This document shows positions 3,654 through 61,512 of a DNA stretch of 64,000 nucleotides, in pieces. Under the pieces are notes generated by a model that saw only the letters and a list, made by a program, of their open reading frames with translations, ran no database searches and was not told where the DNA came from. The translations under genes and the position numbers were made by a program. Source of the stretch: Dehalococcoidia bacterium (lineage in GTDB: Bacteria; Chloroflexota; Dehalococcoidia; Bin125); contig CAXXNO010000004.1 in NCBI GenBank assembly GCA_963663235.2, positions 416,001 to 480,000 on the forward strand, written 5' to 3'. Positions within the stretch are counted from its first letter, which is position 1. Each line of letters starts with the position of its first letter.

Positions 3654-4577
3654 ATGGGTCAACTGGACGGTCGAGTAGTGATCATCACCGGGGCCGGACG
3701 CGGGATCGGCGCATCGCTGGCGCGCGTGATGGCCGGTGAAGGTGCGCGGGTGGTGGTCAACGACCTCGGCGGCGCCGTCGACGGGGCGGGCGCGGACAAG
3801 GCTCCGGCCTCCGAGGTGGTGGACCAGATCCGCGCCGACGGCGGCACGGCGGTGGCGAACTTCGGCAGCGTGGCGGACAACCATGACGCCGAACAGATGG
3901 TCACCCAGGCGCTCAAGGAATACGGGCGGCTGGACGTATTGATCAACGTGGCGGGCATCCTGCGCGACCGCATGATCTTCAACATGACGGAAGAGGAGTG
4001 GGACGCGGTCATCGCCGTGCATCTCAAGGGCACCTACAACACCACCCGCTACGCCGCCATCCACTGGCGGCAGGCGCGGGAGGGACATTACCGTCTGATC
4101 AACTTCTCCTCGGTCTCGGGGCTGCACGGCTCCCCCGGGCAGCCCAACTACGCGGCGGCCAAGATGGGCATCGTGGGCCTGACGTGGTCGTGCGCCAACG
4201 GGCTGGCGCGCTACGGCGTCACCGCCAACGCCATCGCGCCGTCGGCGGCGACGCGCATGCTCCAGGACATCCCCACGGACCGGCAGGGAACGACGATGCA
4301 GAACCCCGCGGACGACCCGCAACGCTCGCCGGACAACATGGCGCCGCCGATCGTCTATCTGGCGAGCACCGCGTCCGACTGGCTCAGCGGGCGGGTCATC
4401 GGTATCCGGGGCTACAAGATCCAACTCTACTCGAACCCGATGATCGAGCGGGAGATGATCTCGCAGGAGCCCTGGTCGGTCGATGAATGCTGCGCGGAGA
4501 TGGAGGGGGCATTCCGATCGGCAGTGGGGGGTGGTCCGGTGTTCGTCTGGGCCGGGCTCGATCCGCAGATCGTCTAG
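3654..4577 (+). CDS. SDR family oxidoreductase (hydroxyacyl-CoA dehydrogenase-like)
   Basis: TGAGRGIG, VVVNDLG, AGILRD and catalytic YAAAK. Confidence 0.9.
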   Translation: MGQLDGRVVIITGAGRGIGASLARVMAGEGARVVVNDLGGAVDGAGADKAPASEVVDQIRADGGTAVANFGSVADNHDAEQMVTQALKEYGRLDVLINVAGILRDRMIFNMTEEEWDAVIAVHLKGTYNTTRYAAIHWRQAREGHYRLINFSSVSGLHGSPGQPNYAAAKMGIVGLTWSCANGLARYGVTANAIAPSAATRMLQDIPTDRQGTTMQNPADDPQRSPDNMAPPIVYLASTASDWLSGRVIGIRGYKIQLYSNPMIEREMISQEPWSVDECCAEMEGAFRSAVGGGPVFVWAGLDPQIV

Positions 4578-4602
4578 GCGCGGGTTTCGGCACGGGGGCG
4601 CC

Positions 4603-5796
4603 ATGGCTACACAGCAGCGCGACGCCGCGATCGTGGGGATCTACGAGTACCCGCGTCGCAAGGTGGACGGGCTCAGCGCGCTCCAGATCCGGGCGGAGTG
4701 CGCCGCCCGGGCGCTGGAGGACGCCGGGCTGACCTGGAGCGACGTAGACGCTCTCTACGACGCCGCCGACCCGGCGCGCTGGGGGGCCGCGAATTTCGCC
4801 GAATACCTGCAACTGAAGCCGGGGATCATCGACACCACGGACGTCGGCGGGAGCTCCTACGAGTTCCATGCCGCGCACGCGAAGCAGGCGATCGCCGCCG
4901 GTAAGACGCGGGTGGCGTTGCTGACCTACGGGTCGACCTCGCACAGCAGCGCCTGGGCCATCGGGACCGGTGCGCGGGAGCCATCGGGACCGCCGACGCC
5001 GTGGGAGAGCATGGAGGCGCCCTGGGGGCTGACGCTGATCGCGAACTATGGCCTGGTCGCGCAGCGCCACCAGTTCGAATACGGCACACGGCCCGAGCAG
5101 TTGGCGGCCATCTCCGTGACGACGCGGGCGCACGCGATGCGCAACCCCGAGGCCGTGCAGGCGATGAAGGATCTGCAGTTCGAGGAGATCCGGGAGATCA
5201 CGGTGGAGGACGTCCTGGGGTCCCGCCTGATCGCGGATCCGATCCATCTGCTGGAGTGCTGCATGATCTCAGACGGCGGCGGCGCGGTGGTGATCGCATC
5301 GGCGGAGGTGGCGCGGGACTGCCGCCGGCCGCCGGTCTGGATCCTGGGGACCGGCGAGGCCACCAAGTATCCGGAGAACGGGGGCGACATCACGACCTCC
5401 GCGGCGGCTCAGTCAGGGCCCGTGGCCTTTGGGGAGGCGGGGGTGGGGCCCGCGGAGATCGATATCGCGATGCTCTACGACTCCTTCACCATCACGGTGC
5501 TGACGGCGCTGGAGGACCTGGGGTTCTGCCAGAAGGGCGAGGGTGGGGCGTTCGCGTCCGAGGATCGCCTGCGCTTCGACGCGCCGCTGCGACCGGCGCT
5601 GAACACGGACGGCGGGGGGCTTTCCTCCAACCATCCGGGAAAACGGGGGATGTTCCTCCTGATCGAGGCGACGCGGCAGCTGCGGGGGCAATCGAACTCG
5701 CAGGTTGAGGGAGCGGGCCTGGCCGTGGCGCACGGCAACGGCGGCGCGTTGGGCACGCAGCACAACGCGGCCACCGTGATCTTGGGGAGGGACTAG
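4603..5796 (+). CDS. thiolase-superfamily protein (SCP-x/Ltp2-like; catalytic Cys absent)
   Basis: LECCMISDGGGA, LYDSFT and NTDGGGLS..HPG motifs; VGGSS where the nucleophilic Cys normally sits. Confidence 0.85.
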   Translation: MATQQRDAAIVGIYEYPRRKVDGLSALQIRAECAARALEDAGLTWSDVDALYDAADPARWGAANFAEYLQLKPGIIDTTDVGGSSYEFHAAHAKQAIAAGKTRVALLTYGSTSHSSAWAIGTGAREPSGPPTPWESMEAPWGLTLIANYGLVAQRHQFEYGTRPEQLAAISVTTRAHAMRNPEAVQAMKDLQFEEIREITVEDVLGSRLIADPIHLLECCMISDGGGAVVIASAEVARDCRRPPVWILGTGEATKYPENGGDITTSAAAQSGPVAFGEAGVGPAEIDIAMLYDSFTITVLTALEDLGFCQKGEGGAFASEDRLRFDAPLRPALNTDGGGLSSNHPGKRGMFLLIEATRQLRGQSNSQVEGAGLAVAHGNGGALGTQHNAATVILGRD

Positions 5797-5800
5797 AGCC

Positions 5801-6211
5801 ATGGCCGCGACACGACCGCTGCCTCGCTTGCCGGAGCCCGATACGCAGCCGTTCTGGGAAGCCACGCGCGGGCACGCACTGCGCTACCAGGCTTGTGAGC
5901 AGTGCGACGCGGTGATTTTCTATCCGCGCCGCCATTGCACGAAATGCTTGAGCCAAAGCCTGACCTGGCGCACGTCCAAGGGCGAGGGCACGCTGTACAC
6001 CTTCAGCGTGGTGCGGCTGAGCCGCCATCCGTTCTTCAAGGAGCGGCTGCCGTACGTGGTGGCCTGGGTGGACCTGGACGAGGGCTTCCGCCTCCTCTCG
6101 AACATCGTCGGGTTCGACGATCCCGCCCGCGACGTGCACATCGGCCAGCGGGTGCGCGTCGAGTGGGAGGACCACGAGACCCTGTCGCTGCCCCTGTTCC
6201 GCCCGCTGTAG
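5801..6211 (+). CDS. DUF35-type Zn-ribbon/OB-fold protein
   Basis: PFWEA, CxxC...PRxxCxxC, GTLYTFSVV, PYVVAWVDLDEG; directly follows the thiolase-fold gene. Confidence 0.9.
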   Translation: MAATRPLPRLPEPDTQPFWEATRGHALRYQACEQCDAVIFYPRRHCTKCLSQSLTWRTSKGEGTLYTFSVVRLSRHPFFKERLPYVVAWVDLDEGFRLLSNIVGFDDPARDVHIGQRVRVEWEDHETLSLPLFRPL

Positions 6212-6458: not shown

Positions 6459-7763
6459 GTGATGGAGCTTCTGGACGAAGCCTACGAGCGAGCGTTGGAA
6501 TCGCTGCGGCGCAACGTGACCCCCATGGGCTTCACGGCCGCGCCGGGGGACGAACCGGCCAATGGAGAGCGCGCTCCACGCGCCGGGAGCTACGACGCCG
6601 TCTGGGCGCGGGACGGCGTGATCAGCGGGCTGTGGGCGCGCGCGACCGAAGATCGCGAGCTATCCGACTGTTCCCGGCGGACCCTGGAAACGCTGGCGGA
6701 GCATCAAACGCCCGGGGGGCAGATCCCTCTCAACGTTCACGTGCGCACCGGGCGCCCGGAGTATTCGGGCCTGGGCGGGATCTCGGGCGTGGACGCCGTG
6801 CTGTGGTTCGTGATCGGGGTGGCGCGCTACACATTCGATACGCAGGACCGCGCCTTCGGCGAGGCGCTGGCGCCCAACGTGGCCGCCGCCATGCAATGGC
6901 TGGAGGCGCACGACTCCAACAACGATACGTTGCTGGAGCTGCCGGAGGCCTCGGACTGGATGGACCTCTTCCCCCGCTCGTACAACGTGTTGTACGACGA
7001 AGTGCTCTGGTACCAGGCCTGCCAGGACTACGCGGCTCTGCTGGATGGTCTGGGGGGGGATGGTGGGGCTTGGCGGCGGTTCTCGGAGCGCGTGCGCGAC
7101 CGGGTCCTGGAGGTCTTCTGGCCCACCTATACGGAGGCGGAGTGGACGGCGCTGGGCAGCAGCGGCCGGCGCATCACCGGCGAGCCGCAGTACCTGCTGA
7201 GCTACGTCACGCCGTACGACTTCTCCTGGCGCTGCGACGTCTTCGCCAATCTTCTGGCGGCGCTCAGCGGCCTGCTGGACGACCCCAAACGCGCGCGGCT
7301 GTACAGCTTCCTGTGGGGCGTGGGCGTCGATCAGCCCTATCCGGTCCGCGTTCTCTACCCGCCGGTCCATTCCGGCGCCGAGGACTGGAAGGACTACTTC
7401 ATCCTGAATTTCCTCAACCTGCCGGATCATTACCACAACGGGGGCATCTGGCCGTTCATCGGAGGGCTCTGGGTGCGCTTCCTTTACACGTTGAGCCGCA
7501 CCGATCACGCCTATGAGCAACTGACGCGCCTGGCTGAGGCCTGCCGCCAGGGCGTCCACGGCGAGTGGGAGTTCAACGAGTGGCTGCACGGCCGCACCGG
7601 CCGGCCGATGGGCAAGGCGCACCAGGCCTGGAGCGCGGCCAGCTATCTCAAGGCGCACTTGGCGCTCCACGGTCACACGACCGTGGAGGACTTCCTGCCG
7701 TTGGTGCCGACGGAACTCAGCCCTACCCCAGCGGTCGCGAAGCCAGAGGGCGCCGCCGAGTAG
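6459..7763 (+). CDS. glycoside hydrolase, (alpha/alpha)6 barrel (GH100 / amylo-alpha-1,6-glucosidase-like)
   Basis: VWARDG, DWMD, YHNGGIWPFIGG, EFNEWLHG and QAWSAA motifs. Confidence 0.8.
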   Translation: MMELLDEAYERALESLRRNVTPMGFTAAPGDEPANGERAPRAGSYDAVWARDGVISGLWARATEDRELSDCSRRTLETLAEHQTPGGQIPLNVHVRTGRPEYSGLGGISGVDAVLWFVIGVARYTFDTQDRAFGEALAPNVAAAMQWLEAHDSNNDTLLELPEASDWMDLFPRSYNVLYDEVLWYQACQDYAALLDGLGGDGGAWRRFSERVRDRVLEVFWPTYTEAEWTALGSSGRRITGEPQYLLSYVTPYDFSWRCDVFANLLAALSGLLDDPKRARLYSFLWGVGVDQPYPVRVLYPPVHSGAEDWKDYFILNFLNLPDHYHNGGIWPFIGGLWVRFLYTLSRTDHAYEQLTRLAEACRQGVHGEWEFNEWLHGRTGRPMGKAHQAWSAASYLKAHLALHGHTTVEDFLPLVPTELSPTPAVAKPEGAAE

Positions 7764-7769
7764 GGGCGT

Positions 7770-9071
7770 CTATTTGGCCGGGTGCGGCGCCGGCTCCAGG
7801 CCGCGGTAGCGCCCCCGGAACTGTTCGAAGATGGCAGCCGTTCGCTTGGCCACGCCGGTCCAGCCGAACTGGCGCCGCGCGAAGCGGGCGCCTTCGTTGC
7901 TCAGTCGTGCCCGCAGGCTTGGGTAGCGGAGCGGCAGGCTGAGAACGGTGGCGAACTCCGTGGGGCGGCTGGGGTCGGCGTAGAGCGCCTGCACGCCGAA
8001 GTCGATCATCTGGTGCAGGCCGCCGTTCACGGTGATCACGGCCGGTGTCCCGCACGCCATCGCCTCCACGGCGGTCATGCCGAACGGCTCGTAGCGTGAG
8101 GGCAGGGCGAAGACGGCGGCGGCGCGGTAGTGGTCGGTCATCGCCTCGTCGGTGATGTACCCGCGCCAGCGAATCCAGCGGGTGACCTCCAGTTGATCGG
8201 CCAGCGCCTGCCAGCGCTGCACCTTGCGACGGTCCCGCGCAGAGTCGGCCCCCACCGCCAGTTGCAGGCGCGCATCGGGAACCAACGTGCGCAGCACCGG
8301 CAGCGCGCGGATGAGGAAGTCATACCCCTTGTTGGAGGCGGCGCGGCCCACGCAGTACACATCATGGGTGCGGAACCCCAAGCGGCGGCGCGCATCGGTG
8401 ACGCTCTCCGGCAGCGCCGGCGTGTAGCGCGCCTCATCGATGCCGGGAGGCACCAGCGTGACGTGCTCGGCGGGCACGTCGTAGTGGTCGCGGAGGATGT
8501 CGGCTTGGTCGGGCGAGGTGGCGATCAGGTGATCGCAGTGCTGATAGACCAGAAACTCTTTGCGGATCCGTTCATCGAAGCGGTACTGCTGTTCCAGGAC
8601 CGCGGGGTCCTCTTTCATCTCTGTGCGCTTCCACCAGCCCAAGGAGTGAGGCGTATGGATGTGGGGGATGTTCAGCTCCTCGGCGATCCGCTGGCCGGCC
8701 CAGCCGGCGTCCCAGTAGTGCGAGCTGACGACGTCGTAGCGGGTCCGGCTGGTGGCGACGGCCGCGAGGAACCGGGTGATGAAATCGCCCAGGTAGTCGT
8801 GCATGTCTTCTTTGCGCACGAACCCCGGGGCGCCGAAGGGGATGCGCCAGATGCGCAAGCCGTCCGCGATCTCGTCGACGGCCGGCTGGGTCTCGAAGCG
8901 GCGGGTGACGATGTCGACCCGGTAGCCGAGGCGGGCGAAGCGCTTGGCCATCTCCAAGACGAAGACGACCTGGCCCCCGGTGTCCGGCAAGCCCAACTCC
9001 GGCTCCGCGGCCACATACCCGTGCACCGAAAGCATCAGGATGGAGCCGACGGGGGATGGCCCTAGGGTCAT
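7770..9071 (-). CDS. mfpsA: mannosylfructose-phosphate synthase-like GT4 glycosyltransferase
   Basis: HGYVAAEPELGLPDTGGQVVFVLE, TRRFE, SHYWDAG, HTPHSLG, SRYEPFGMTAVEAMACGTP and ALYADP closely follow Agrobacterium MfpsA as recalled. Confidence 0.75.
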   Translation of the reverse strand: MTLGPSPVGSILMLSVHGYVAAEPELGLPDTGGQVVFVLEMAKRFARLGYRVDIVTRRFETQPAVDEIADGLRIWRIPFGAPGFVRKEDMHDYLGDFITRFLAAVATSRTRYDVVSSHYWDAGWAGQRIAEELNIPHIHTPHSLGWWKRTEMKEDPAVLEQQYRFDERIRKEFLVYQHCDHLIATSPDQADILRDHYDVPAEHVTLVPPGIDEARYTPALPESVTDARRRLGFRTHDVYCVGRAASNKGYDFLIRALPVLRTLVPDARLQLAVGADSARDRRKVQRWQALADQLEVTRWIRWRGYITDEAMTDHYRAAAVFALPSRYEPFGMTAVEAMACGTPAVITVNGGLHQMIDFGVQALYADPSRPTEFATVLSLPLRYPSLRARLSNEGARFARRQFGWTGVAKRTAAIFEQFRGRYRGLEPAPHPAK

Positions 9072-9322
9072 GCACGCTCCTCGAGCGGCCGAGCAGCCCG
9101 GATAGCCATGGTAGCCGTTCTGTAAAGTCCGTGAGCGCTCGCCGACGCCAGGACGGCCGTCCGCGCCCCCAGGCGGACGGCCGTTCGCGGGCGCCGCGGG
9201 ATCTTTGCCCGGCGCGCCGTGGGGCGCTGGGCCCTCAGGGATAGCCAGTGATCGGGCCGCCGAGCCGACAGAATCTGGTAGCGTGCCCTCGCCGGCGACA
9301 ACCGGCCGGGAACGTGGGGGCG

Positions 9323-9739
9323 ATGGCGCACGATCCGACGGTGATCCGCGTGCTGCTGGCCAAGGTCGGGCTGGACGGCCACGACCGCGGGGTGAAGATC
9401 GTCGCGCGCTGCCTGCGCGATGCGGGCATGGAGGTGGTCTACATCGGGCTGCACCATACGCCCGGCGATATCGTGGACACGGCCATCGAGGAGGATGTCG
9501 ACATCCTCGGCGTGAGCCTGCTCTCGGGCGCGCACATGACGATCTTCCCGCGCATGGTGGAGTTGCTTCGCGAGAACGGCGCGGACGATATCATCTTGGT
9601 CGGAGGCGGCGTGATGGCGGAAGAAGACGTCGTGGCGCTGAAGGCGCAGGGCGTCGCCGAGATCCTGCTGCAGGACGCGCCGCCCGACGCGATCGTGGAG
9701 ACGATGCGCCGGCTCATCGCCGAGCGCGGGCCGCGCTGA
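9323..9739 (+). CDS. hcmB: 2-hydroxyisobutyryl-CoA mutase small (B12-binding) subunit
   Basis: IRVLLAKVGLDGHDRG (DxHxxG), GVSLLSG and LLQDAPP are HcmB-like; lies upstream of the large subunit. Confidence 0.8.
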   Translation: MAHDPTVIRVLLAKVGLDGHDRGVKIVARCLRDAGMEVVYIGLHHTPGDIVDTAIEEDVDILGVSLLSGAHMTIFPRMVELLRENGADDIILVGGGVMAEEDVVALKAQGVAEILLQDAPPDAIVETMRRLIAERGPR

Positions 9740-9793
9740 GCGGCGGTCGTGGCGGCGCGGGAGTCCCCGCCGCGGTGAGGGAAGGGGAAGCCG

Positions 9794-11494
<1,701 letters not shown>

Positions 11495-11532
11495 GCGACG
11501 GCCGAGCGGGCGGCTCGGCGACGGAGCGGGAG

Positions 11533-12936
11533 ATGGCCGGCGCGGACACCGAGCTTGCCTACGCGTCGATCGCCGACGTCGGCGCGCGGATCCGGCGGCG
11601 CGAGGTGTCGCCGGTGGAGCTCACCGAGCTCGTGCTGGCCCGCATCGAGGAGCACAACCCCGCGCTCAACGCCTACTACGCGCTGTTTCCCGAGCAGGTC
11701 CTCGCCGCGGCCCGCGCCGCAGAGCAGGAGATCGCGGCCGGGAGCTACCGCGGGCCACTGCACGGCATCCCGATCTGCATTAAGGACATCTACGAGAGCG
11801 GCCCGACGACCTGCGGGTCGAAGGCGCTCGACGGCTACGTGGCGGAACGAGATTGCACGGCGGTGGCGAAGCTCAAGCAGGCCGGCGCCCTGGTCCTGGG
11901 CAAATCCGCCACCTACGAGTTCGCCACCGGCTATCAGGTCACGGACTCCCACTTTGGGCCCACGCACAACCCCTGGAACCCGGCGTACGACGCCGGCGGC
12001 TCCAGCAGCGGCACGGGGGCGGCGGTCGCGGCGGGGCTGGCGTACGCGGGCATGGGCTCCGACACCGGTGGCTCGATCCGGTGGCCGGCGCAGGTGTCCC
12101 TGATCGTCGGGCTCAAGGGGACCTACGGCCGCGTCAGCCGCGCCGGCGTGTACCCGCTGGCCTGGACGCTGGATCATACCGGCCCGCTGGCCCGCACGGT
12201 GACCGACGCGGCGTTGATGTTGCAGGGGTGTGCGGGCTACGACCCCGGAGATCCGGCCTCGGCGGACGTGCCGGCGCCGGACTTTACGGCGAAGATCGGG
12301 CGGGAGATCCGGGGCATGAAGGTTGGGCTGCCGCGGGCCCTCTACGAGGAGAGTTGCGAGCCCGGCCTCCTGCAGGCGTTCAACGCGGCGCTGGCGGTGT
12401 TCGAGTCGCTGGGGGCGGAGTTGGTGGATGTGCCGTCGATCACGCTGACGCAGCTGCAAGCGGTGCAGTGGCCCATTGCGTTCGCGGAGCAGGCCGCCAT
12501 CCACCAGGCGAACGTGCGCCGGCGTGGCCAGGACTACAGCCCGCACCTCAGGCAGTTCGTGCAGTACGGCACGCTGATCCCGGCGGCGTACTACTTGTCG
12601 GCGAACCGGGTACGCGCGCAAGTGCTCGCCGACCAGGTCCGGATGCTCACGGAGGACGTGGACGTCCTGGCGCTGCCGACGACCGGGTTTCAGATCAACA
12701 AAGTCTTCGATCGGTCGCCGGGGCTCAGCCTCTTGTCTGCCGTCTTCTCGCTGTACACGCCCCTGTTCAACCTCACCGGCCTGCCATCGATCCAGGTTCC
12801 CTGCGGCTTCGATCAGCGTGGACTGCCGGCCGGGCTGCAGATTGCGGCGAAGCCGTTCGATGAGGCGACCGTGATCCAGGTGGCTTACGCCTACGAGCAG
12901 GCGGCGGGCTGGCACAGGCGGCACCCGGACCTGTAA
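11533..12936 (+). CDS. amidase signature family enzyme
   Basis: GPLHGIPICIKD (Lys), GGSSSGTG and GSDTGGSIRWP (Ser-cisSer-Lys triad). Confidence 0.9.
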   Translation: MAGADTELAYASIADVGARIRRREVSPVELTELVLARIEEHNPALNAYYALFPEQVLAAARAAEQEIAAGSYRGPLHGIPICIKDIYESGPTTCGSKALDGYVAERDCTAVAKLKQAGALVLGKSATYEFATGYQVTDSHFGPTHNPWNPAYDAGGSSSGTGAAVAAGLAYAGMGSDTGGSIRWPAQVSLIVGLKGTYGRVSRAGVYPLAWTLDHTGPLARTVTDAALMLQGCAGYDPGDPASADVPAPDFTAKIGREIRGMKVGLPRALYEESCEPGLLQAFNAALAVFESLGAELVDVPSITLTQLQAVQWPIAFAEQAAIHQANVRRRGQDYSPHLRQFVQYGTLIPAAYYLSANRVRAQVLADQVRMLTEDVDVLALPTTGFQINKVFDRSPGLSLLSAVFSLYTPLFNLTGLPSIQVPCGFDQRGLPAGLQIAAKPFDEATVIQVAYAYEQAAGWHRRHPDL

Positions 12937-12986
12937 CCGCCGGCCACGGATCGGTTGTGGTAGGTTCCCGTGCAAGGGGGCGGGAG

Positions 12987-15440
12987 ATGCTCAGCCCGTA
13001 CCGTGTGCTGGACCTGACGGATGAGCGCGGGGTGCTGTGCGGCCAGATCCTGGCCGACCTGGGCGCCGACGTGATTCAGGTGGAGCCGCCGGGCGGCTCG
13101 CCGGCGCGGCGGCTGGGGCCCTTCTACCAAGATGAGCCGTCGCCCGAGAAGTCGCTCTACTGGTGGGCCTACTGCCGCAACAAGCGCGGGATCACGCTTG
13201 ACCTCGACGACTCGGACGGGCAGGAGACGCTGCGCCGGCTCGTGCGGAGCGCGCACTTCTTCATCGAGTCCGAGACACCCGGCGTCATGGCCGCGCGCGG
13301 CCTGGGCTACGACGATCTGGCGCGCATCAACCCCGGGCTGATCTACGTGTCGATCACGGCGTTCGGGCAAGACGGCCCCAAGGCGGGCTGGGCCGGCACC
13401 GACCTGACCGTGCTGGCCGCCGGCGGGCCGCTGATCCTGGCCGGCGACCGCGACCGCGCGCCGGTCCGCGCGAGCGTGCCGCAGGCCTCCCACCACGCCG
13501 CGGGGGACGCCGCGGGCGCCGCGCTGATCGCCCACCAGGAGTGGCGCCGATCCGGCCTGGGCCAGCACGTCGACGTGTCGGCGCAGCAGTCGGTCGCGCA
13601 GGCGACCATGGCGCTGATCCTCTCGGCGCCCGTGGGGGAAACGGAGAGTGTCCGCGCCTCCGGCGGCATGGTGCTGGGGCCGCTGGAAGCGCGGCTGATC
13701 TGGCAGGCCACGGACGGGTATATCTCGCTGACCTTCTTCTTTGGCTCCGCCATCGGGCCGTTCACGCGGCGTTTCATGGAGTGGGTCTTTGAGGAGGGTG
13801 GCTGCGACGCAGCGACCCGCGACAAGGACTGGATCGCCTACGCGCAACTCCTGCTGAGCGGCGATGAGCCGATGGAAGAGTTCGAGCGCGTCAAACAGGT
13901 TGTGGCGGAGTTCATCGCGACGAAGAGCAAGGCCGAGTTGTTCGAAACGGCGCAGGAGCGGGGTTTGCTCATCGTCCCGGTCACGGAGATCGACGAGGTG
14001 GCCACGAGTCCGCAACTGGAAGCCCGAGGCTACTGGCGGACACTCGAGCACCCGGAGGTCGGAGCGTCGATTCGCTACCCCGGCCCGTTCGTCCAGTTCA
14101 GCGAAAACCCGATCGCCTACCGCCGGCGGGCGCCGCTCATCGGGGAGCACAACGCCGAGGTCCTCGGCGAACCAGTGGCGGACGCGCCCGCCGCGTCGCC
14201 CTCCCCCTCCGCGGAGCCCGCGGAGCCCGCGGAGCTGCCCCTGCGCGACGTCAAGGTGCTGGATTTCTTCTGGGTCGTCGCGGGGCCCACCGCGACGCGC
14301 GTGCTGGCCGACTACGGGGCCACCGTGATCCGGGTGGAATCGACGAAGCGGGTGGAGACGGCCCGCACCATTCAGCCGTTCCACAAGGGCCAGCCCGGCC
14401 CGGAGAACTCCAGCCTGTTCGGTACGGCGAATGCAGGCAAGCTGGGGCTGACGCTGAACCTGGGGACGGAGGAGGGACGCAACGTGGTGCGCGATCTCGC
14501 GCGCTGGGCGGACGTGGTCACCGAGTCCTTCTCCCCCAAGGCGATGCGCGCCTGGGGCCTGGATTACGAAGCGCTGGCGCGGATCAACCCCCGCATCATC
14601 ATGCTCAGCAGCTGCCTCTTCGGGCAGAGCGGCCCGCTGGCGGGGGTGGCGGGGTTCGGCACGATGGGGTCGGCGATCTCCGGCTTCATCAACCTGGCCG
14701 GCTGGCCGGACCGCCCCCCGGTGGGGCCGTTTGGGGCCTACAGCGACTACTGCGCCCCCCGCTTCACGGTGCCGGCGCTGCTGGCGGCGCTGGAGTACCG
14801 CGACCGCACGGGCAAGGGGCTGTACATCGATCAGTCCCAGGCCGAGTCGGCGCTGCACTTCATCGGCCCGGCGTTCCTGGACTACACGGTGAATGGGCGC
14901 GTCGCGAAGCGCAACGGGAACCGCGATCCGCTCATGGCGCCGCACGGCGTCTACCCGGCCTCCGGGGAGGATGCCTGGGTCGCCATCGCCGTGCGCGACG
15001 ACGACGACTGGCGGCGGTTCTGCGTCGCCAGCGGCCGGGCGGATTTGGCGGGCGACGCCCGTTTCGCCACGGCGGCGGGGCGCAAGGCGAATGAGGACGC
15101 CCTGGACGCGCTGGTGAGCGAGTGGTCGGCGTCGCGGCCGGCGGCGGACGCGGAGCGCGCGCTGCAAGCGCAGGGGGTGCCTGCCTCGGTGGTGCAGGGC
15201 AGCTCGCTCTGCGCGGCGGACCCGCAGTTGGGCCATCGCGGGCACTTCGTGGAGCTGGAGCATCCGGTGCACGGCACGACCATTGTGGAGGGGTCGCGCT
15301 TCCGGCTCTCTCGCACGCCCGCGGCGATCACGCGCGCCGCGCCGACATTCGGCCGCGATAACGACTACGTCCTGCGGGAATTGCTGGGCTACGACGAGGG
15401 CCGGATCGCAGATCTGGCGATCGCCGGCGCCTTGGAATAG
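12987..15440 (+). CDS. double-domain CaiB/BaiF family III CoA-transferase (BbsE-BbsF-like fusion)
   Basis: Two tandem modules (VLDL...LADLGADVIQVEPPGG and VLDF...LADYGATVIRVES). The catalytic-Asp region (GAYSDY) is evident only in the second module. Confidence 0.88.
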   Translation: MLSPYRVLDLTDERGVLCGQILADLGADVIQVEPPGGSPARRLGPFYQDEPSPEKSLYWWAYCRNKRGITLDLDDSDGQETLRRLVRSAHFFIESETPGVMAARGLGYDDLARINPGLIYVSITAFGQDGPKAGWAGTDLTVLAAGGPLILAGDRDRAPVRASVPQASHHAAGDAAGAALIAHQEWRRSGLGQHVDVSAQQSVAQATMALILSAPVGETESVRASGGMVLGPLEARLIWQATDGYISLTFFFGSAIGPFTRRFMEWVFEEGGCDAATRDKDWIAYAQLLLSGDEPMEEFERVKQVVAEFIATKSKAELFETAQERGLLIVPVTEIDEVATSPQLEARGYWRTLEHPEVGASIRYPGPFVQFSENPIAYRRRAPLIGEHNAEVLGEPVADAPAASPSPSAEPAEPAELPLRDVKVLDFFWVVAGPTATRVLADYGATVIRVESTKRVETARTIQPFHKGQPGPENSSLFGTANAGKLGLTLNLGTEEGRNVVRDLARWADVVTESFSPKAMRAWGLDYEALARINPRIIMLSSCLFGQSGPLAGVAGFGTMGSAISGFINLAGWPDRPPVGPFGAYSDYCAPRFTVPALLAALEYRDRTGKGLYIDQSQAESALHFIGPAFLDYTVNGRVAKRNGNRDPLMAPHGVYPASGEDAWVAIAVRDDDDWRRFCVASGRADLAGDARFATAAGRKANEDALDALVSEWSASRPAADAERALQAQGVPASVVQGSSLCAADPQLGHRGHFVELEHPVHGTTIVEGSRFRLSRTPAAITRAAPTFGRDNDYVLRELLGYDEGRIADLAIAGALE

Positions 15441-15463: not shown

Positions 15464-16297
15464 TCAGCCCTCGCGCTCGAAGACCGCCCGCACGACCGCG
15501 ATGCGGCCCTCCTCGAGGTTGCGGGAGAGGTTCCCGATCGCCTCGCCAAACCCGGGGCCCAGGAGGACGGCCGGGCTGAGCGGCGGCGGGCCCTGGTCGG
15601 CGGCGGTCGCCCGCGCGGCCCGGACCCAGGCGATGGACTGATCGGTCACGTCCTGCCAGACGCGCTCGCGGAGGCCGCTTTGCTCGATGAGCGTGCGCAG
15701 CTCCTGGGCGCCCACCAGGAAGCTGATGGCGGGATCGCGAGCCCAGGGCACGGGAAAGTGGGGCTCCGGCGTTGGGCCGGAGAGGACTTCGTGCAGGATG
15801 AAGCGGCCGCCGGGCTGGAGGACTCGCAGGATTTCCGTGCAGAGGCGTCCCTTGTCCTGGATGTTCATTTGCGCGTGCTGCGTCCAGACGACGTCGTAGG
15901 ACGCATCGGCGAAGGGCGTGGCGAGGGCGTCGGCGCAGCGGATCTCCACCTGGTCGCTCAGGCCGGTGCGCGCCGTGAGGAGCTCGGCCGCTTGGCAGTA
16001 GGCCTCGGTGAGGTCGATGCCGGTGACGCGACAGCCAAACCCGGCGGCCAGCGTGCGGGCGGGTCCGCCGATGCCGCAGCCGATGTCCAGGACCCGCATT
16101 TCCTCCCGCAGACCGGCCAGGGAGGCGAGTGCGAGGGTCGCGTCGTGGCCGCCGATGTGGAAATGGTCGAGCGGCGCGAGGTCCGCCGGCCTGAGCGCAT
16201 CCAGGTCCTTGCCGGCGCGGGCGAGCGCTTCCAGGATCCGTCCCCCCAGATCCGGCCGGCCGTAGTGCTGGTTGACCGCTTCGGCGATGTCGCTGAC
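15464..16297 (-). CDS. class I SAM-dependent methyltransferase (sarcosine/dimethylglycine N-methyltransferase-like); start codon uncertain
   Basis: DHFHIGG, VLDIGCGIGGPAR, GIDLT and LQPGGRF motifs. A strong SD (AAGGAG) sits 6 nt before a GTC codon at 16297. Confidence 0.8.
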   Translation of the reverse strand, partial: VSDIAEAVNQHYGRPDLGGRILEALARAGKDLDALRPADLAPLDHFHIGGHDATLALASLAGLREEMRVLDIGCGIGGPARTLAAGFGCRVTGIDLTEAYCQAAELLTARTGLSDQVEIRCADALATPFADASYDVVWTQHAQMNIQDKGRLCTEILRVLQPGGRFILHEVLSGPTPEPHFPVPWARDPAISFLVGAQELRTLIEQSGLRERVWQDVTDQSIAWVRAARATAADQGPPPLSPAVLLGPGFGEAIGNLSRNLEEGRIAVVRAVFEREG

Positions 16298-16453
16298 GGG
16301 CCGCTCCTTTTTGTGCTGGGTCGGGCCCGGCACCCAGCGATAGCGTAGCGAACCGTCGAAGTAGGGGCCGCGGCGTCGCTGCGTCGCCGCCGTTTGCGAC
16401 GTTCGTCGGAGGAGGAATCCGTCCTTGGTCGCTCCGGAATCCCGAGGCACTGC

Positions 16454-16482
16454 CGTCACAAAGCCCCGCCGCATCGACCATA
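16454..16482 (+). promoter_or_regulatory. candidate ECF sigma promoter of the tasA/sipW operon (CGTCAC-N17-ACCATA)
   Basis: Same -35 hexamer pattern and spacing as three other island sites (25124, 34945 minus, 35186). Confidence 0.4.
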
Positions 16483-16617
16483 CAGGTAGAGGAAGTCTGC
16501 CGATTTTCCGGTCCCAAGTGGGGCCCGGCATCGGTAACGGGGGGAAAGAGGTCCAGAGGGCGTGACGCCATTGGACATCGGAGCGAATCACCACCCCGAT
16601 ACGGACGGGAGGCAGCG

Positions 16618-17160
16618 ATGCTGCGCCTGATTCTCACCCTCGTGGGAGTTATCGGTATTTCGACGGCCTTTGTCGTGACCGACACCCTGGCGGTCTACAC
16701 CGACCAGGAGACGAACAGCGCCAACGCCTTCGACACTGGGAGCGTGGATTTGGCCAACGCCCCGGACAGCGCCATCGTGACTTTCACCAACATGGCGCCC
16801 GGCAACTCGGTGATCCAGCCGCTGACTGTGACCAACAGCGGCTCGCTTGATCTGCGCTACGCCATGACGGCGACGGCGACCAACGCCGACAGCAAGAACC
16901 TCCGCGACCAGTTGCTGCTGACGGTGCGCACGCAGACGGCCAATCCGTGCTCCTCGGAGGACGGGGCGGTGCTCTACGGGCCCGCGGCCCTCTCAGCCGG
17001 CGCTTTCGGCGACGCGACCCAGGGGGCGCAGGCCGGTGACCGGACACTGTTGATCGGCACGAACGAATCATTGTGCTTCAAGGTGGAGTTGCCGGCGGCG
17101 AGCGCCAATTCCTTCCAGAGCGCGGCCGCGACCGTCACGTTCACGTTCGACGCGGAATAG
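16618..17160 (+). CDS. tasA: TasA/CalY (camelysin, M73-like) fibre subunit with SipW-type signal peptide
   Basis: GGAGG RBS; TLA|VYTDQETNSANAFDTGSVDL; NMAPGNSV..LTVTNSGSLDLRY; LCFKVELP; FTFDAE. The TAG is followed in frame by TTNNP-TAA. Confidence 0.8.
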   Translation: MLRLILTLVGVIGISTAFVVTDTLAVYTDQETNSANAFDTGSVDLANAPDSAIVTFTNMAPGNSVIQPLTVTNSGSLDLRYAMTATATNADSKNLRDQLLLTVRTQTANPCSSEDGAVLYGPAALSAGAFGDATQGAQAGDRTLLIGTNESLCFKVELPAASANSFQSAAATVTFTFDAE

Positions 17161-17201
17161 ACGACTAACAACCCGTAACCCCAGGAGCGACGCGGACGCT
17201 G

Positions 17202-18716
17202 ATGACAACCTCAAGGCACAAAAATCGATCGCGCTCTCGGCGGCCACTGCTATTGTTGCTGGCCGTTGTGGGCGCCGTCAGCCTGGCGATCGTTGGGACG
17301 GCGGGCCCGGCGCTGCTGCCGGGCGAAGGCTCCGGCGGCGACGATTTCACGGCGCAAGCCGCCGCCGACGCCGGCGGCGCGCTCAGCGCGCCGGTGAGTC
17401 CCGACGGCGACTGCGACACCGATGCAGCCGAACGCGGCGCAACCCTGCCGGACGAGTGCACTGAAGGCCGGAACGGGGGCGACCACACCGCCGCCGCGGC
17501 CGGCGAGGACGCCACGACCGACGAGTACATCCTCAGCGTCGCCGTGGTGGAGGACGGCGCCACGGACGGGGGCACTCCTGCTGCCTCTGGGACGGGCAAA
17601 CTCCCCGGCGGGCCGGGGGCCATCGAAGACCCGACCGGCGGCATTTTCATCAACTTTGGCGGTATCGAGGTCCGTGGCCGCGATGGCGAGCCGGCCGGTG
17701 GGGCTGACGCTGGGTCCGATCCGCCGGGGCCCAACGGGGCGTTTGGCCCCGGCGGCGGTGACCCGTCCGGTTCCTTTGTGGCGGGGGACGGCGATTCGGC
17801 CGGTCCCGACGCCTCGGACGGAATCTTTGGCTTCCAGCCCGACGACGGGGACGGCTCTGGCGCCGATGATGCGTCGTCCGGCTCAGGCGACTCCGGCGGC
17901 GACTCCGGCGGCGTCTTCGGCGGCGGCACTGGCAGCGGCGGCGGCGGCTCCGACGACGGCTCGGACATCGGCTCGGGCGACAACTCGGGCAGCGGCACCA
18001 GCGACGGCACGGACGACGGCTCGGGCGATGACTCGGGCAGCGGCACGGGCGACGGCACGGGCGATGACTCGCGCAGCGACTCGGGCGATGACTCGGGCAG
18101 CGACTCGGGCGACAGCTCGGGCAGCGGCTCCGACGAAGACTGCGACGACGGTTCCGACGACGACTGCGGCGACGGCACGGGCGACAACTCAGGCAGCGGC
18201 TCCGGCGGTGACTCCAACGATCCCCCGCCCCCGCCTCCGCCCCCACCCCCGCCCCCGCCCCCGCCGAGCGGAGGGGGCCCCGTGGATCTGGTGGCTTCGC
18301 CCGGGAGCGCGGTGGTCAGCTTCTCGAACATGGCCCCCGGCGACTCCGTGATCGCGGTGTTGGTGCTCACCAACAACGACTCCACCGAGCTGCGCTACGC
18401 CATGACGACCTCCGCCACCAACGCGGACGGCAAAAACCTGGCGGGCCAGTTGCTGGTGACGATCCGGCTGAAGACGTCGAATCCTTGCTCTGCGGAGGAC
18501 GGCGCGATTCTCTACGGCTCCGGGCCGTTGAGCGGCGCGGCCTTCGGCGATCCGGCGCAGGGAGCCCAGGCCGGCGACCGTGTCTTGGCGCCCGGCGCGA
18601 GCGAGCAACTGTGCATCAAAGTGGAACTCCCGCTTTCCAGCGGCAACGAGACCCAGAACGCGGCGACCGTGGCCCCCTTCGTTTTTGACGCGGAAGAGAC
18701 CTTCAATAACCCGTAG
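17202..18716 (+). CDS. N-terminally anchored or secreted protein with Gly/Asp/Ser stalk, polyproline hinge and C-terminal TasA-like domain
   Basis: Hydrophobic N-terminus and GSGDDSGS-type repeats. The C-terminal ~155 aa closely match the preceding TasA (NMAPGDSV, LRYAMT, NADGKNL, NPCSAEDGA, FGDPAQGAQAGDR, LCIKVELP, FDAEETFNNP). Confidence 0.75.
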   Translation: MTTSRHKNRSRSRRPLLLLLAVVGAVSLAIVGTAGPALLPGEGSGGDDFTAQAAADAGGALSAPVSPDGDCDTDAAERGATLPDECTEGRNGGDHTAAAAGEDATTDEYILSVAVVEDGATDGGTPAASGTGKLPGGPGAIEDPTGGIFINFGGIEVRGRDGEPAGGADAGSDPPGPNGAFGPGGGDPSGSFVAGDGDSAGPDASDGIFGFQPDDGDGSGADDASSGSGDSGGDSGGVFGGGTGSGGGGSDDGSDIGSGDNSGSGTSDGTDDGSGDDSGSGTGDGTGDDSRSDSGDDSGSDSGDSSGSGSDEDCDDGSDDDCGDGTGDNSGSGSGGDSNDPPPPPPPPPPPPPPPSGGGPVDLVASPGSAVVSFSNMAPGDSVIAVLVLTNNDSTELRYAMTTSATNADGKNLAGQLLVTIRLKTSNPCSAEDGAILYGSGPLSGAAFGDPAQGAQAGDRVLAPGASEQLCIKVELPLSSGNETQNAATVAPFVFDAEETFNNP

Positions 18717-18736
18717 CCGCCCAGCGCGGGGTGTGA

Positions 18737-19984
18737 ATGATGGAAAAATCTATGCCAGCCGCTTCGACCCGCATTCGGAGGATCGCACTCCGAACGGCGC
18801 TGCTTGTGGTCGTGGCGACGCTCGGTCTGGTGGTCACGGGCGCGCTGCCCACGCTGCTGGGCTATGACTCGTTTGTGGTCACGGGAAGCAGCATGGAGCC
18901 CACGGTACGCAAGGGCTCCGTCGTGATCGCGCGGCGGGTCGCCCCCCACACGATCGCGGCCGGCGACATCATCACGTTCCGCCGGACGCAGGATCCCGGC
19001 GTCGCGGTCACGCACCGCGTCATCGACGTGCGCGAAGTGGACGGTGTCCCGGTCTTCGAGACCAAAGGAGACGCCAACGAGACCGCGGATCCGGAGGCCG
19101 TGCAGGCCACCGCGTTGATCTCCAAGATGCAGTATTCCGTCCCCTATGTGGGCTACGTATTGATGTTCGGACGGTCGACGATGGGCAAGGCGGTGCTGAT
19201 TGTGGTTCCCCTGCTCGCTCTGGCCCTGAGCTTCCTCCCGGCCCGGCGCTTGCGCCGGAGGGACGGGGGGGTGGAGGCGACGGCGGCCTCGCCTGAGCCG
19301 AGCGAAGCGCCGGCGCGGGTCGCGCCAGAGGAGCCGCCGCCTGCGCGTCGGTTCCCGCCGGGCCCCGCGGCGGCCCCGGATCCGATGGCGGGCCCGGCCG
19401 TGATGGTGGCCCCGGCCGTGATGGCGGCCCAGCCTCCGACGGCCGTCCCGGCCCGTCCAGCGGCCCCGGCGCGTGCGGCGGCCCCGGCCGTGATGGCGGC
19501 CCCGCCTCCGATAGTGACTCTGCCTCCGACGGCGGCCCCGGTCCGTGCGGCGGCCTCGCTCCCTATGGTGGCCCCGCCTCCGAGGGCGGCCCCGGCCCGT
19601 GCCGCGGCCTCGCTCCCTATGGTGGCCCTGCCTCCGATGGCGGCCCCGGCCGTGAAGGCGGCCCCGCCTCCGATAGTGACTCCGCCTCCGACGGCGGCCC
19701 CGGCCCGTGCGGCGGCCTCGCTCCCTGTGGTGGCCCCGCCTCCGACGGCGGCCCCGGCCCGTGCGGGGATCCTGCTTCCTGTGGCGCGCCCGACCCCTAC
19801 GGTCCTCCGGGCCCCCGCGGCGGTCCCGGTCTCCGCGCCGCCCAGCATGGCGCTCGCCTCCGATCGCGGCGCAGCGACTTCGCAACGGCAGCCGGACCGG
19901 TCCCATAACGCCGCCGCCGCGGCGCGGGCGCGGATCCTGGCCAGGCTGACCGCTCAGGTGGCGCATAGAGGGGCGACGGCTTAA
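18737..19984 (+). CDS. sipW: signal peptidase I, SipW/S26B type, with Pro/Ala-rich repeat tail
   Basis: VVTGSSMEP (Ser), GDIITF, VTHRV (His), TKGDAN..D and VPYVGY motifs. Confidence 0.9.
   Translation: MMEKSMPAASTRIRRIALRTALLVVVATLGLVVTGALPTLLGYDSFVVTGSSMEPTVRKGSVVIARRVAPHTIAAGDIITFRRTQDPGVAVTHRVIDVREVDGVPVFETKGDANETADPEAVQATALISKMQYSVPYVGYVLMFGRSTMGKAVLIVVPLLALALSFLPARRLRRRDGGVEATAASPEPSEAPARVAPEEPPPARRFPPGPAAAPDPMAGPAVMVAPAVMAAQPPTAVPARPAAPARAAAPAVMAAPPPIVTLPPTAAPVRAAASLPMVAPPPRAAPARAAASLPMVALPPMAAPAVKAAPPPIVTPPPTAAPARAAASLPVVAPPPTAAPARAGILLPVARPTPTVLRAPAAVPVSAPPSMALASDRGAATSQRQPDRSHNAAAAARARILARLTAQVAHRGATA
19430..19770 (+). repeat. ~54-bp (18-aa) imperfect tandem repeats in the SipW tail
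   Basis: PPTAAPVRAAASLPMVAP / PPRAAPARAAASLPMVAL / PPMAAPAVKAAPPPIVTP / PPTAAPARAAASLPVVAP. Confidence 0.8.
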
Positions 19985-19988
19985 CGCG

Positions 19989-60925: not shown

Positions 60926-61316
60926 TCACCCGCTCCTGGGGACGCGCGGCCTCTTCGGCTTCCTGCTTGGGGATTCCGATGACCACGCGCTGGAAAAGAA
61001 CAAGGCAAAGGAGAACGGCGGAGACGGGTTTGCGACCGTGGGGACCTCAAGCCTCACCATCTTCACCAAGAACGCGTCCGAGAAGAACGATGGCTTCGGC
61101 TACTCGGACGGCACGCGCGGATCCAAGCCCTGCGGGCCGCGGCCGAACAGGTGATATCGCTGCTTCCGTAGTGGACCCGCACGGAACGTCGCGCGGTTCG
61201 GCCGTTCGACAAACGGAGCCCGGCGCGATGTGCGCATCGTGTGCGGTGCGCCGCCCGCCGCTTAGCAGCGGACATCGCTCCTTCTGCGGACGCGGGAAGT
61301 CAAACGCCCGCCCGGT

Positions 61317-61344
61317 TTGACACCGCGGTGCAGCGCACTATGCT
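61317..61344 (+). promoter_or_regulatory. sigma-70 promoter TTGACA-N16-TATGCT
   Basis: Consensus -35 and near-consensus -10 immediately upstream of the riboswitch. Confidence 0.7.
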
Positions 61345-61354
61345 GCGCTCACTG

Positions 61355-61460
61355 CTGCGTGGTGTTCGGGGAAGTCCGGTGTAAATCCGGCGCTGTCCCG
61401 CAACTGTGAGTTCCCGATCCGAAGGGGTGGGGGACGAGCCAGAGCACCGGCCCACGCGAC
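61355..61460 (+). promoter_or_regulatory. cobalamin riboswitch
   Basis: GGGAAGTCCGGTGTAAATCCGGCGCTGTCCCGCAACTGT ... GAGCCAG conserved boxes upstream of btuFCD-like genes. Confidence 0.92.
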
Positions 61461-61512
61461 GTGTCGACCTGCGAGGACAGGCAGCGACGTGGTTCTTCCC
61501 CGTCACCCGCCT

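Follow-up and report, generated by a model that had tools for sequence, protein, structure and literature searches.

A predicted 2-hydroxyisobutyryl-CoA mutase operon with an amidase and a single-chain CoA-transferase: a candidate variant module for 2-hydroxyisobutyric acid in a Dehalococcoidia bacterium

In a 64,000-nucleotide stretch of the genome of a Dehalococcoidia bacterium of the phylum Chloroflexota (GenBank assembly GCA_963663235.2, contig CAXXNO010000004.1, positions 416,001 to 480,000; G000:C4:416001-480000 in our numbering, and the window hereafter), four close-packed genes on the + strand, within window positions 9323-15440, encode the small and large subunits of a putative 2-hydroxyisobutyryl-CoA mutase (HCM; genes hcmB and hcmA), an amidase and a double-domain CaiB-type CoA-transferase. 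On balance, and with reserve, we favour reading the locus as a variant catabolic module for 2-hydroxyisobutyric acid (2-HIBA) in which, to judge from gene content and gene neighbourhood, a CoA-transferase would stand in place of the ATP-dependent, PaaK-like ligase Hcl, the G-protein chaperone MeaH being absent from the cluster as well. Metabolism of 2-HIBA is known from a handful of organisms. The source genome comprises 2.75 Mb in 14 contigs, is 91.9% complete and has ~70% G+C. The four genes are the following:

9323..9739, + strand: hcmB-like gene for the small B12-binding subunit, 139 amino acids (aa) from ATG 9323 (PF02310, TIGR00640, DGHDRG)
9794..11494, + strand: hcmA-like gene for the predicted large subunit of 2-hydroxyisobutyryl-CoA mutase, 566 aa (PF01642, match to 4r3u_A, signature residues)
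11533..12936, + strand: amidase of the amidase-signature (AS) family, 467 aa, lineage-specific at this position (PF01425, AS motifs)
12987..15440, + strand: single-chain double family III (CaiB/BaiF) CoA-transferase, BbsEF-like, 817 aa (two CoA_transf_3 domains)

The mutase subunits

The large subunit matches PF01642 at 4.7e-206. Among PDB sequences, its match to 4r3u_A, an entry named '2-hydroxyisobutyryl-CoA mutase large subunit', reaches 895 bits (E 1.6e-268), compared with 444 bits for human methylmalonyl-CoA mutase (MCM) and 256 bits for IcmF. Ile94 (RQIAGFG), Asp121 (IDFDMP) and Gln212 (IAQKEW) are identical to the aligned residues of 4r3u_A, and Gln212 aligns with an Arg of human MCM (MVRNTY). 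We take the specificity positions of HcmA to be Ile90, Asp117 and Gln208, the Ile replacing Tyr89 of MCM or Phe80 of isobutyryl-CoA mutase (ICM), and we assume that a Gln in place of the carboxylate-binding Arg207 of MCM denotes a monocarboxylic substrate. The mutase genes of the same phylum fall into two kinds at these sites: the HcmA-like ones read RQIAG[FY]G...xDFDMP, whereas the MCM- and ICM-types read RQY, RQF or RMF together with AFD. The large subunit is 66-82% identical to proteins of the HcmA clade.

The small subunit matches PF02310 (2.1e-24) and TIGR00640 (3e-39), carries DGHDRG, a DxHxxG motif, from residue 43 onwards, and shares 57-72% identity with the hcmB products of canonical HCM loci as against 46% with the small subunit of the genome's own MCM. 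A second mutase, on contig C6, is accompanied by an epimerase-like glyoxalase gene, a small subunit of its own and the only full MeaB of the genome; this is an ordinary methylmalonyl-CoA mutase operon. The hcmB and hcmA products very probably form, as their sequences predict, a coenzyme-B12-dependent mutase interconverting 2-hydroxyisobutyryl-CoA and (S)-3-hydroxybutyryl-CoA. An earlier note on this DNA had described the four genes and called the mutase HCM-type. The gene order, strand, coordinates and short spacers that it gave were confirmed by comparisons of open reading frames (ORFs), Pfam matches and contigs; the motifs RQIAGFG and IDFDMP that it named are present, starting at residues 92 and 120 of the large subunit; and the HCM-type call was borne out by the signature residues together with the closeness to crystallised HcmA. 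Phylogeny, which the note had proposed as a check, nests the large subunit in the HcmA clade.

A different use of the same enzyme is very unlikely. The substrate could be another 2-hydroxy-2-methylacyl-CoA or lactyl-CoA, or the reaction could run in reverse, the transferase releasing 2-HIBA and saving the thioester. All examined specificity positions, however, equal those of the crystallised enzyme, and the 66-82% identity to HcmA-clade proteins points the same way; the biosynthetic direction, in addition, gives the amidase no obvious role, and no consumer of free 2-HIBA is evident nearby. These points have to be set against the behaviour of known enzymes: HCM enzymes are reversible and somewhat promiscuous. 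According to the available text of one report, that of Bacillus massiliosenegalensis converts lactyl-CoA, and CoA-transferases can recycle CoA between mutase product and substrate acids (PMC11599936); in the available text of another, butanone, too, induces the mutases of ketone-degrading sulfate reducers (PMC7888143).

The fused CoA-transferase

The CoA-transferase consists of two halves joined by a Pro/Ala-rich linker of ~25 residues. The best solved match of the N-half is 9fn0_A (212 bits) and that of the C-half 9fn0_B (220 bits), the two chains of succinyl-CoA:(R)-benzylsuccinate CoA-transferase, whose subunit names we take to be BbsE and BbsF and whose donor is presumably succinyl-CoA. 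Asp149 (GTDLT) in the N-half aligns with the Asp of 9fn0_A. Gly568 (GFGTM) in the C-half aligns with the Gly of 9fn0_B, and also with the Asp of 4ed9 and of SUGCT; the aligned Asp is, we assume, the catalytic residue of family III transferases. Across 41 fused homologues, the Asp of the N-half is kept in at least 90% and the Gly of the C-half is invariant. Since the Asp lies in one half and the Gly in the other, the protein appears to be the single-chain equivalent of a heterodimer with one predicted active site. It would thus work like the benzylsuccinate enzyme, not being a member of it: the match to 9fn0 is of moderate strength, so that the substrate is presumably not benzylsuccinate, and no bbs or benzylsuccinate-pathway genes lie near the operon.

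Family models place the protein no further. Its best NCBIfam score is 381 bits against a cut-off of 750 bits, no equivalog being reached, and its 3449 relatives at E<=1e-150 are all generically named. The nearest of these are labelled Tepidiformaceae and Chloroflexota, and paralogues occur throughout the source family. The relatives of 58-61% identity found in genus g2 and in others have, for the most part, exactly one in-frame stop near the domain junction; they probably represent pairs of neighbouring genes read in one frame, with fusion and split forms alternating within the family.

Conservation of the mutase-transferase pairing

In a sample of the source family comprising 61 genomes of 10 genera, HcmA was found in four genomes, namely the source and all three of the sister genus g222 (G603, G760 and G763; 79-80% identity). 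In the g222 genomes hcmB directly adjoins hcmA, which is followed on its strand, after 1.3, 1.6 or 3.4 kb, by an orthologue of the fused transferase (68-69% identity over the full length). Orthologues of at least 68% identity are confined, within the family sample, to the same four genomes as HcmA, and the fused or split CaiBs of 53-61% identity common in other genera of the family belong to genera without HCM. The outer flanking genes differ between g222 and the source genome, an MFS transporter converging on the transferase in all three g222 genomes, and hcmBA and CaiB remain together. The link between CoA-transferase and mutase drawn in the earlier note thus holds, the transferase being syntenic with hcmBA in every one of the three relatives that have this HcmA clade. 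Neither Hcl nor MeaB is encoded within roughly 6-10 kb either side of the hcm cluster in g222, and the identity of the PaaK-like ligases of G603 to Hcl is only 25-30%.

At other HCM loci the ligase is almost always present. As the available text of one study has it, hcl in many strains forms an operon-like arrangement with meaH and either hcmAB or rcmAB, and has been described so far as the dedicated activating enzyme, in operons with mutase or lyase (PMC7176365). A scan of one genome per species gave 80 loci, 26 of them with the exact Ile/Asp signature. Hcl is present in 25 of the 26, the sole exception being a 3.5-kb contig; MeaB is present in 23, an amidase in none and a CaiB in none, and the usual order is hcmB, a gene of ~1.4 kb, a meaB-like gene and hcmA. 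Sampling of 400 genomes of the phylum and 400 of the class added six further HCM-signature genomes at 57-67% identity (G224, G062, G167, G050, G448 and G483; four from the phylum sample and two from the class sample). Some of the tallies include six unpublished genomes (G145, G344, G227, G173, G038 and G272), on which no specific claim is based. Hcl stands beside the mutase in five of the six additional loci, the sixth breaking off 0.9 kb after the mutase; all six lack an amidase, and one has a single-domain CaiB, 4 kb away beyond other genes. With these six genomes, HCM is rare in the phylum but not unique to the source genome, and the 'unexpected phylum' of the earlier note was an overstatement. 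In one of the six, G224, hcl, the HCM-signature hcmA and a gene for a thiamine-diphosphate enzyme stand in a row (G224:C1:634000-653900, ~7497-12610), with no hcmB match nearby; this genome may possess both a mutase and a lyase route for 2-hydroxyisobutyryl-CoA.

Outside the source family, then, Hcl accompanies 30 of 32 HCM loci, and both the amidase and the fused transferase are missing from all (0/32 each); inside the family the fused transferase accompanies four of four. The ligase and the fused transferase are mutually exclusive among the HCM-signature loci, a distribution that supports a transferase serving instead of a ligase, as far as gene neighbourhood can tell. In the source genome there is no hcl or meaH inside the operon cluster, just as the earlier note had stated. 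With nine Hcl-type proteins of HCM loci as queries, whose identity to the one taken for comparison is 53% or more, tblastn gave no match at E<=1e-3 in the source genome, and PF14535 (AMP-binding_C_2) has no match in it either. The search for hcl and meaH thus had two outcomes: no Hcl homologue was detected, by queries or by PF14535, in this 92%-complete genome, whereas one MeaB-type chaperone does exist, in the MCM operon on C6. Because ~8% of the genome is missing, the absence of Hcl is not proven.

The CoA substrate of the mutase could also be supplied in another manner, which we judge to be rather unlikely. In this alternative the HCM is genuine and 2-hydroxyisobutyryl-CoA derives either from acetone and formyl-CoA through a thiamine-dependent 2-hydroxyacyl-CoA lyase (HACL), a reaction proposed for sulfate reducers and run in the reverse direction by actinobacteria, or from a generic ligase; the transferase and the amidase would serve formyl-CoA supply or unrelated substrates. 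The source genome encodes an oxalyl-CoA decarboxylase/HACL-like thiamine enzyme beside a formyl-CoA-transferase-like CaiB (C8:111.5-114.8 kb), although on another contig than the operon and with sub-cut-off scores (402 vs 557 bits for oxalyl-CoA decarboxylase, 273 vs 600 for the lyase). It also has ten AMP-binding ligases, and the row of hcl, hcmA and thiamine enzyme in G224 counts in favour of this alternative. An HCM working without Hcl is known, from what is available of two reports, in the acetone pathway of Desulfococcus and Desulfosarcina (PMC7888143, PMC7176365). The acetone clusters, however, keep a MeaB-like gene and a thiamine enzyme beside the mutase in the available text (PMC7888143), and neither is adjacent here. 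A lyase or a generic ligase also leaves unexplained why the Hcl-less loci, four out of four, carry an orthologous fused transferase.

The amidase and the nitrile hydratase

The amidase matches PF01425 at 4.7e-108 and has IKDI (K84), GGSSSG (155) and GGSIR (179) intact, motifs that we take to hold the Lys, the cis-Ser and the Ser of the AS family. It remains below the NCBIfam cut-offs (GatA, 320 vs 481 bits; PRK06169, 305 vs 506 bits), its best solved relatives are GatA subunits, and none of the characterised specificities (GatA, AtzE, allophanate hydrolase and others) could be assigned to it. The subfamily to which it belongs (56-63% identity) occurs, among the 61 family genomes, in the four HCM genomes only, with 4-5 copies in each. 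One orthologous group of this subfamily adjoins nitrile hydratase in all four. A full-length nitrile hydratase alpha subunit is encoded in seven of the 61 genomes, including the four with HCM, and in two g222 genomes, G603 and G763, ~22-25 kb separate the hydratase-amidase pair from the hcm cluster. In the source genome, a nitrile hydratase cluster (beta, alpha and activator-like genes) is located on contig C9, divergent from the amidase paralogue that is most similar, within this genome, to the one in the operon (63% identity). The genome search for nitrile hydratase suggested in the earlier note was in this way successful, the enzyme being encoded elsewhere, beside that paralogue. Acetone cyanohydrin, a derivative of the plant glucoside linamarin, is turned into 2-HIBA by a hydratase and an amidase according to the available text of a biotechnological study (PMC2847961).

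A careful tree places the operon amidase on a separate and fairly long branch that diverges early within the subfamily. The possibility that it is a recent copy of the nitrile-hydratase-linked amidase was rejected, given that separate early branch.

Two further observations concern these gene families. A genome of a third genus, g405 (G759:C35:9588-13484), encodes a nitrile hydratase alpha subunit ~1 kb away from a fused double CaiB, which shares 54% identity with that of the source; G759 has no HcmA, and the pairing is a further hint linking nitrile or amide catabolism to such transferases. The 2.75-Mb source genome itself shows a marked expansion of paralogues, with amidases, CaiBs (four of them double-domain) and many clustered luciferase-like monooxygenases.

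Proposed pathway

Taking into account (i) the conserved synteny of hcmBA and the transferase and (ii) the mutual exclusion between the transferase and Hcl, we consider it reasonably probable that the transferase takes over the activation of 2-HIBA. In the model, the canonical hcl and meaH would have been lost from between hcmB and hcmA in the source family, and the adjacent single-chain CoA-transferase would activate free 2-HIBA from a donor thioester with no ATP spent, candidate donors being succinyl-CoA, acetyl-CoA, acetoacetyl-CoA and the product 3-hydroxybutyryl-CoA. The single full MeaB of the MCM operon may serve both mutases. The 3-hydroxybutyryl-CoA formed would then be oxidised by 3-hydroxyacyl-CoA dehydrogenases, homologues of which are encoded elsewhere in the source genome.

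The steps upstream of the free acid are proposed with less confidence. The operon amidase might hydrolyse an amide such as 2-hydroxyisobutyramide, or a related 2-hydroxy-2-methyl amide, to the free acid, and the nitrile hydratase of the genome would possibly form this precursor from cyanohydrins; we suggest such a release of a 2-HIBA-type acid tentatively, as a doubtful step. A complete ATP-independent route from nitriles to central metabolism seems improbable. In such a route the hydratase would make 2-hydroxyisobutyramide or 2-hydroxy-2-methylbutyramide, the amidase would follow, the transferase would recycle the thioester with 3-hydroxybutyryl-CoA or acetoacetyl-CoA as donor, and the HCM would work without a dedicated MeaH.

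Several observations weigh against the proposal as a whole or against parts of it. A metagenome scan with the fused CaiB gave 80 loci of 33-60% identity, none with hcmA, hcmB, an amidase or MeaB; as none of them has hcmAB, the fused family overall does not serve HCM specifically. The nearest relative of the transferase with a solved structure uses the dicarboxylate benzylsuccinate and not a small 2-hydroxy acid, and the ten ligases of the source genome, which are generic, could activate 2-HIBA. Since the two genera are close relatives, the conservation of the hcm-CaiB pairing represents one or two evolutionary events and not four. As for the amidase, it stands beside hcm in none of the 35 other HCM-signature loci and has no orthologue in g222, where the interval between hcmA and the transferase contains an opposite-strand Peripla_BP_2 gene and no amidase. 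Being a separate branch without a g222 orthologue, it has its place inside the operon as the sole direct argument for an upstream role; and as it is neither syntenic nor orthologous in relatives, the assignment of 2-hydroxyisobutyramide as substrate rests on one operon. The amide route from 2-hydroxyisobutyramide put forward in the earlier note is weakened by these results, and of the four-gene synteny for which it had proposed to search, hcmBA and the transferase were kept in relatives and the amidase was not.

Chance adjacency, furthermore, is not negligible in a genome where amidases occupy 21 loci and CaiBs more than 20, three other double-domain CaiBs among them. It would mean that the amidase and the CaiB are paralogues acting on other substrates, placed without pathway meaning beside an HCM operon that lost hcl and meaH, which we hold to be distinctly unlikely. 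The nearest fused CaiBs outside g222 do stand in unrelated contexts, and the amidase link is found in the source genome only. Yet the CaiB orthologue is located 1.3-3.4 kb from hcmA, on the same strand, in all three g222 genomes despite their different flanks, and at 68% identity or more it is restricted to the four HCM genomes of the 61. Moreover, the spacers of 38-54 nt are compatible with one transcript, as far as their lengths indicate, and an HCM without a route to its CoA substrate would be useless. A transferase that activates 2-HIBA for the adjacent mutase is the reading that we retain.

Origin of the module

In quick trees of HcmA-type proteins, the sequences of the source, of g222 and of a third lineage (P0029-P0031) form one clade with a support of 98 in the SH-like approximate likelihood ratio test (SH-aLRT). 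The clade falls inside a Pseudomonadota-dominated radiation, apart from the other HCM genes of the same phylum, and the nearest named relatives are labelled Acidiferrobacterales (78-82% identity). In the third lineage there is a hint of a similar pairing: the HcmA-like P0030 and a fused CaiB, P0128 (67% identity), are each encoded on an ENA contig of 13,877 bases. The mutase clade probably arrived by horizontal transfer, judging from these trees. The G+C content at third codon positions (GC3) of the four operon genes, 0.90-0.93, is similar to that of the neighbouring genes, and the transfer of hcmBA was for that reason not recent. In the simplest reading, the history of the module would comprise one horizontal acquisition of hcmBA, the loss of hcl and meaH, and the recruitment of a resident transferase paralogue.

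Layout of the operon and surrounding genes

The four-gene unit is bordered on both sides by genes of the opposite strand:

7770..9071, - strand: GT4 glycosyltransferase, upstream border, on the opposite strand to the operon
9072..9322 (251 nt), no strand assigned: intergenic stretch from which the GT4 gene (-) and hcmB (+) diverge, presumed to hold the promoter of the four-gene unit
15464..16594, - strand: methyltransferase, downstream border, on the opposite strand to the operon

Pfam recognises B12-binding, MM_CoA_mutase, Amidase and two CoA_transf_3 domains in the operon proteins. The spacers measure 54 nt (hcmB-hcmA), 38 nt (hcmA-amidase) and 20-50 nt (amidase-CaiB), and each ends in a purine-rich, Shine-Dalgarno-like stretch. 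Two of the genes have a possible alternative start. That of hcmB is GTG 9248, homologues aligning only from residue ~24-33. For the CaiB gene it is GTG 12957; ATG 12987 is the likelier start because the stretch GGGGGCGGGAG lies directly upstream of it, the database copy has 817 aa and homologues align from residue ~11. In each of four public runs, from four studies, one contig covers 10913/11020 to 15900, leading from the 3' part of hcmA across the amidase and the CaiB into the methyltransferase, and differs from the window at 0-22 positions over ~4.9 kb. As these independent contigs span the junctions, the arrangement is not an assembly artefact.

Regulatory signals were scarce. A sigma-70-like promoter scan of the cluster gave no sites, a scan that says little at 70% G+C. 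Two terminator-like sites were found, both inside the CaiB gene, with 2.1 expected by chance, and no terminator stands out. Rfam has no family in the cluster, the region 9072..9322 included; the window has a single match, to a cobalamin riboswitch at a distance of 46 kb (RF00174, 40 bits; 61312-61469, + strand). A few hundred bases 3' of the riboswitch, at ~61847-62581 on the + strand (C4:477847-478581), lies a Peripla_BP_2/BtuF-like homologue with 27% identity (tblastn) to the g222 protein encoded between hcmA and the transferase.

Peripla_BP_2 is the family that includes the cobalamin-binding BtuF. The Peripla_BP_2 gene of G603 is conserved at 88-90% in G760 and G763. A + strand ORF of 309 aa without a Pfam match, found in G603 between hcmA and CaiB, was rejected in its favour, the opposite-strand gene having the higher GC3, a Pfam match and conservation. 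G760 has two extra genes between hcmA and the BtuF-like gene (L238, G760:C1:862000-880000, 8012-9522), one weakly phosphoribosyltransferase-like and the other DprA/SLOG-like, which may be a small defence-type pair.

Upstream of the operon, at a distance of 3.5 kb, the window contains, at 4483-6211 on the + strand, a gene for a thiolase-domain protein (SCP-x/PRK08142-like, 406 bits, sub-cut-off) followed by an ORF of 136 aa without NCBIfam match. The thiolase-domain protein could process acetoacetyl-CoA downstream of the pathway; other genes intervene before the operon. On the downstream side (16618-22880, + strand), a row of genes encodes a TasA/camelysin-like protein, a family-less protein of 504 aa, a SipW-type signal peptidase I and a TIG/CBM96 'choice-of-anchor' protein of 963 aa, and resembles a locus for secreted fibres or biofilm matrix.

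Implications

In the literature searched we found neither a natural 2-HIBA CoA-transferase nor an HCM operon that includes a CoA-transferase. Engineered pathways have had to borrow unrelated transferases for the analogous step, according to the available text of one report (PMC11599936). If the proposal is true, the swap of a ligase for a CoA-transferase would alter the energetics of the pathway and make available an enzyme that forms or releases 2-HIBA, from which methacrylate polymers can be derived, while conserving the thioester. The full nitrile route, if true, would be the first natural case of a 2-HIBA:CoA-transferase and the first link of nitrile or amide catabolism to a B12 mutase. 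The locus, in addition, offers a candidate function for one member of the very large family of fused double CaiBs and a possible example of module remodelling after horizontal transfer, with hcl and meaH lost and a resident transferase recruited. These results should be most useful for work on acyl-CoA mutases, on 2-HIBA bioproduction and on the function of fused CaiBs.

Comparison with known systems

The closest characterised counterpart of the mutase is HcmAB of Aquincola tertiaricarbonis L108 (4r3u), with which it shares the separate large and small subunits, the Ile, Asp and Gln residues, the clade and the DxHxxG motif. The gene clusters differ: that of A. tertiaricarbonis L108 is ordered hcmB-hcl-meaH-hcmA, whereas here hcmB and hcmA adjoin and are followed by the amidase and the fused CoA-transferase. 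The host phylum differs as well.

The HCM of Desulfococcus biacutus and Desulfosarcina cetonica is alike in working without Hcl, as far as the available parts of the two sources go (PMC7888143, PMC7176365). Their clusters contain, in the available text, a thiamine-dependent enzyme, a dehydrogenase and a MeaB-like kinase (PMC7888143), none of which is adjacent to the operon described here.

The biotechnological route from acetone cyanohydrin, in what is available of its description, resembles the present case in that a complete nitrile hydratase cluster and an amidase paralogue are at hand in the source genome and the chemistry would yield 2-HIBA (PMC2847961). That route stops at free 2-HIBA and is unlinked to HCM, and in the source genome the hydratase lies on another contig than the operon.

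With the succinyl-CoA:(R)-benzylsuccinate CoA-transferase (9fn0), finally, the fused transferase shares the asymmetry of Asp and Gly, between its two halves in the one case and between chains A and B in the other. The benzylsuccinate enzyme is built from two separate chains, whereas in the protein described here both protomers are contained in one polypeptide.

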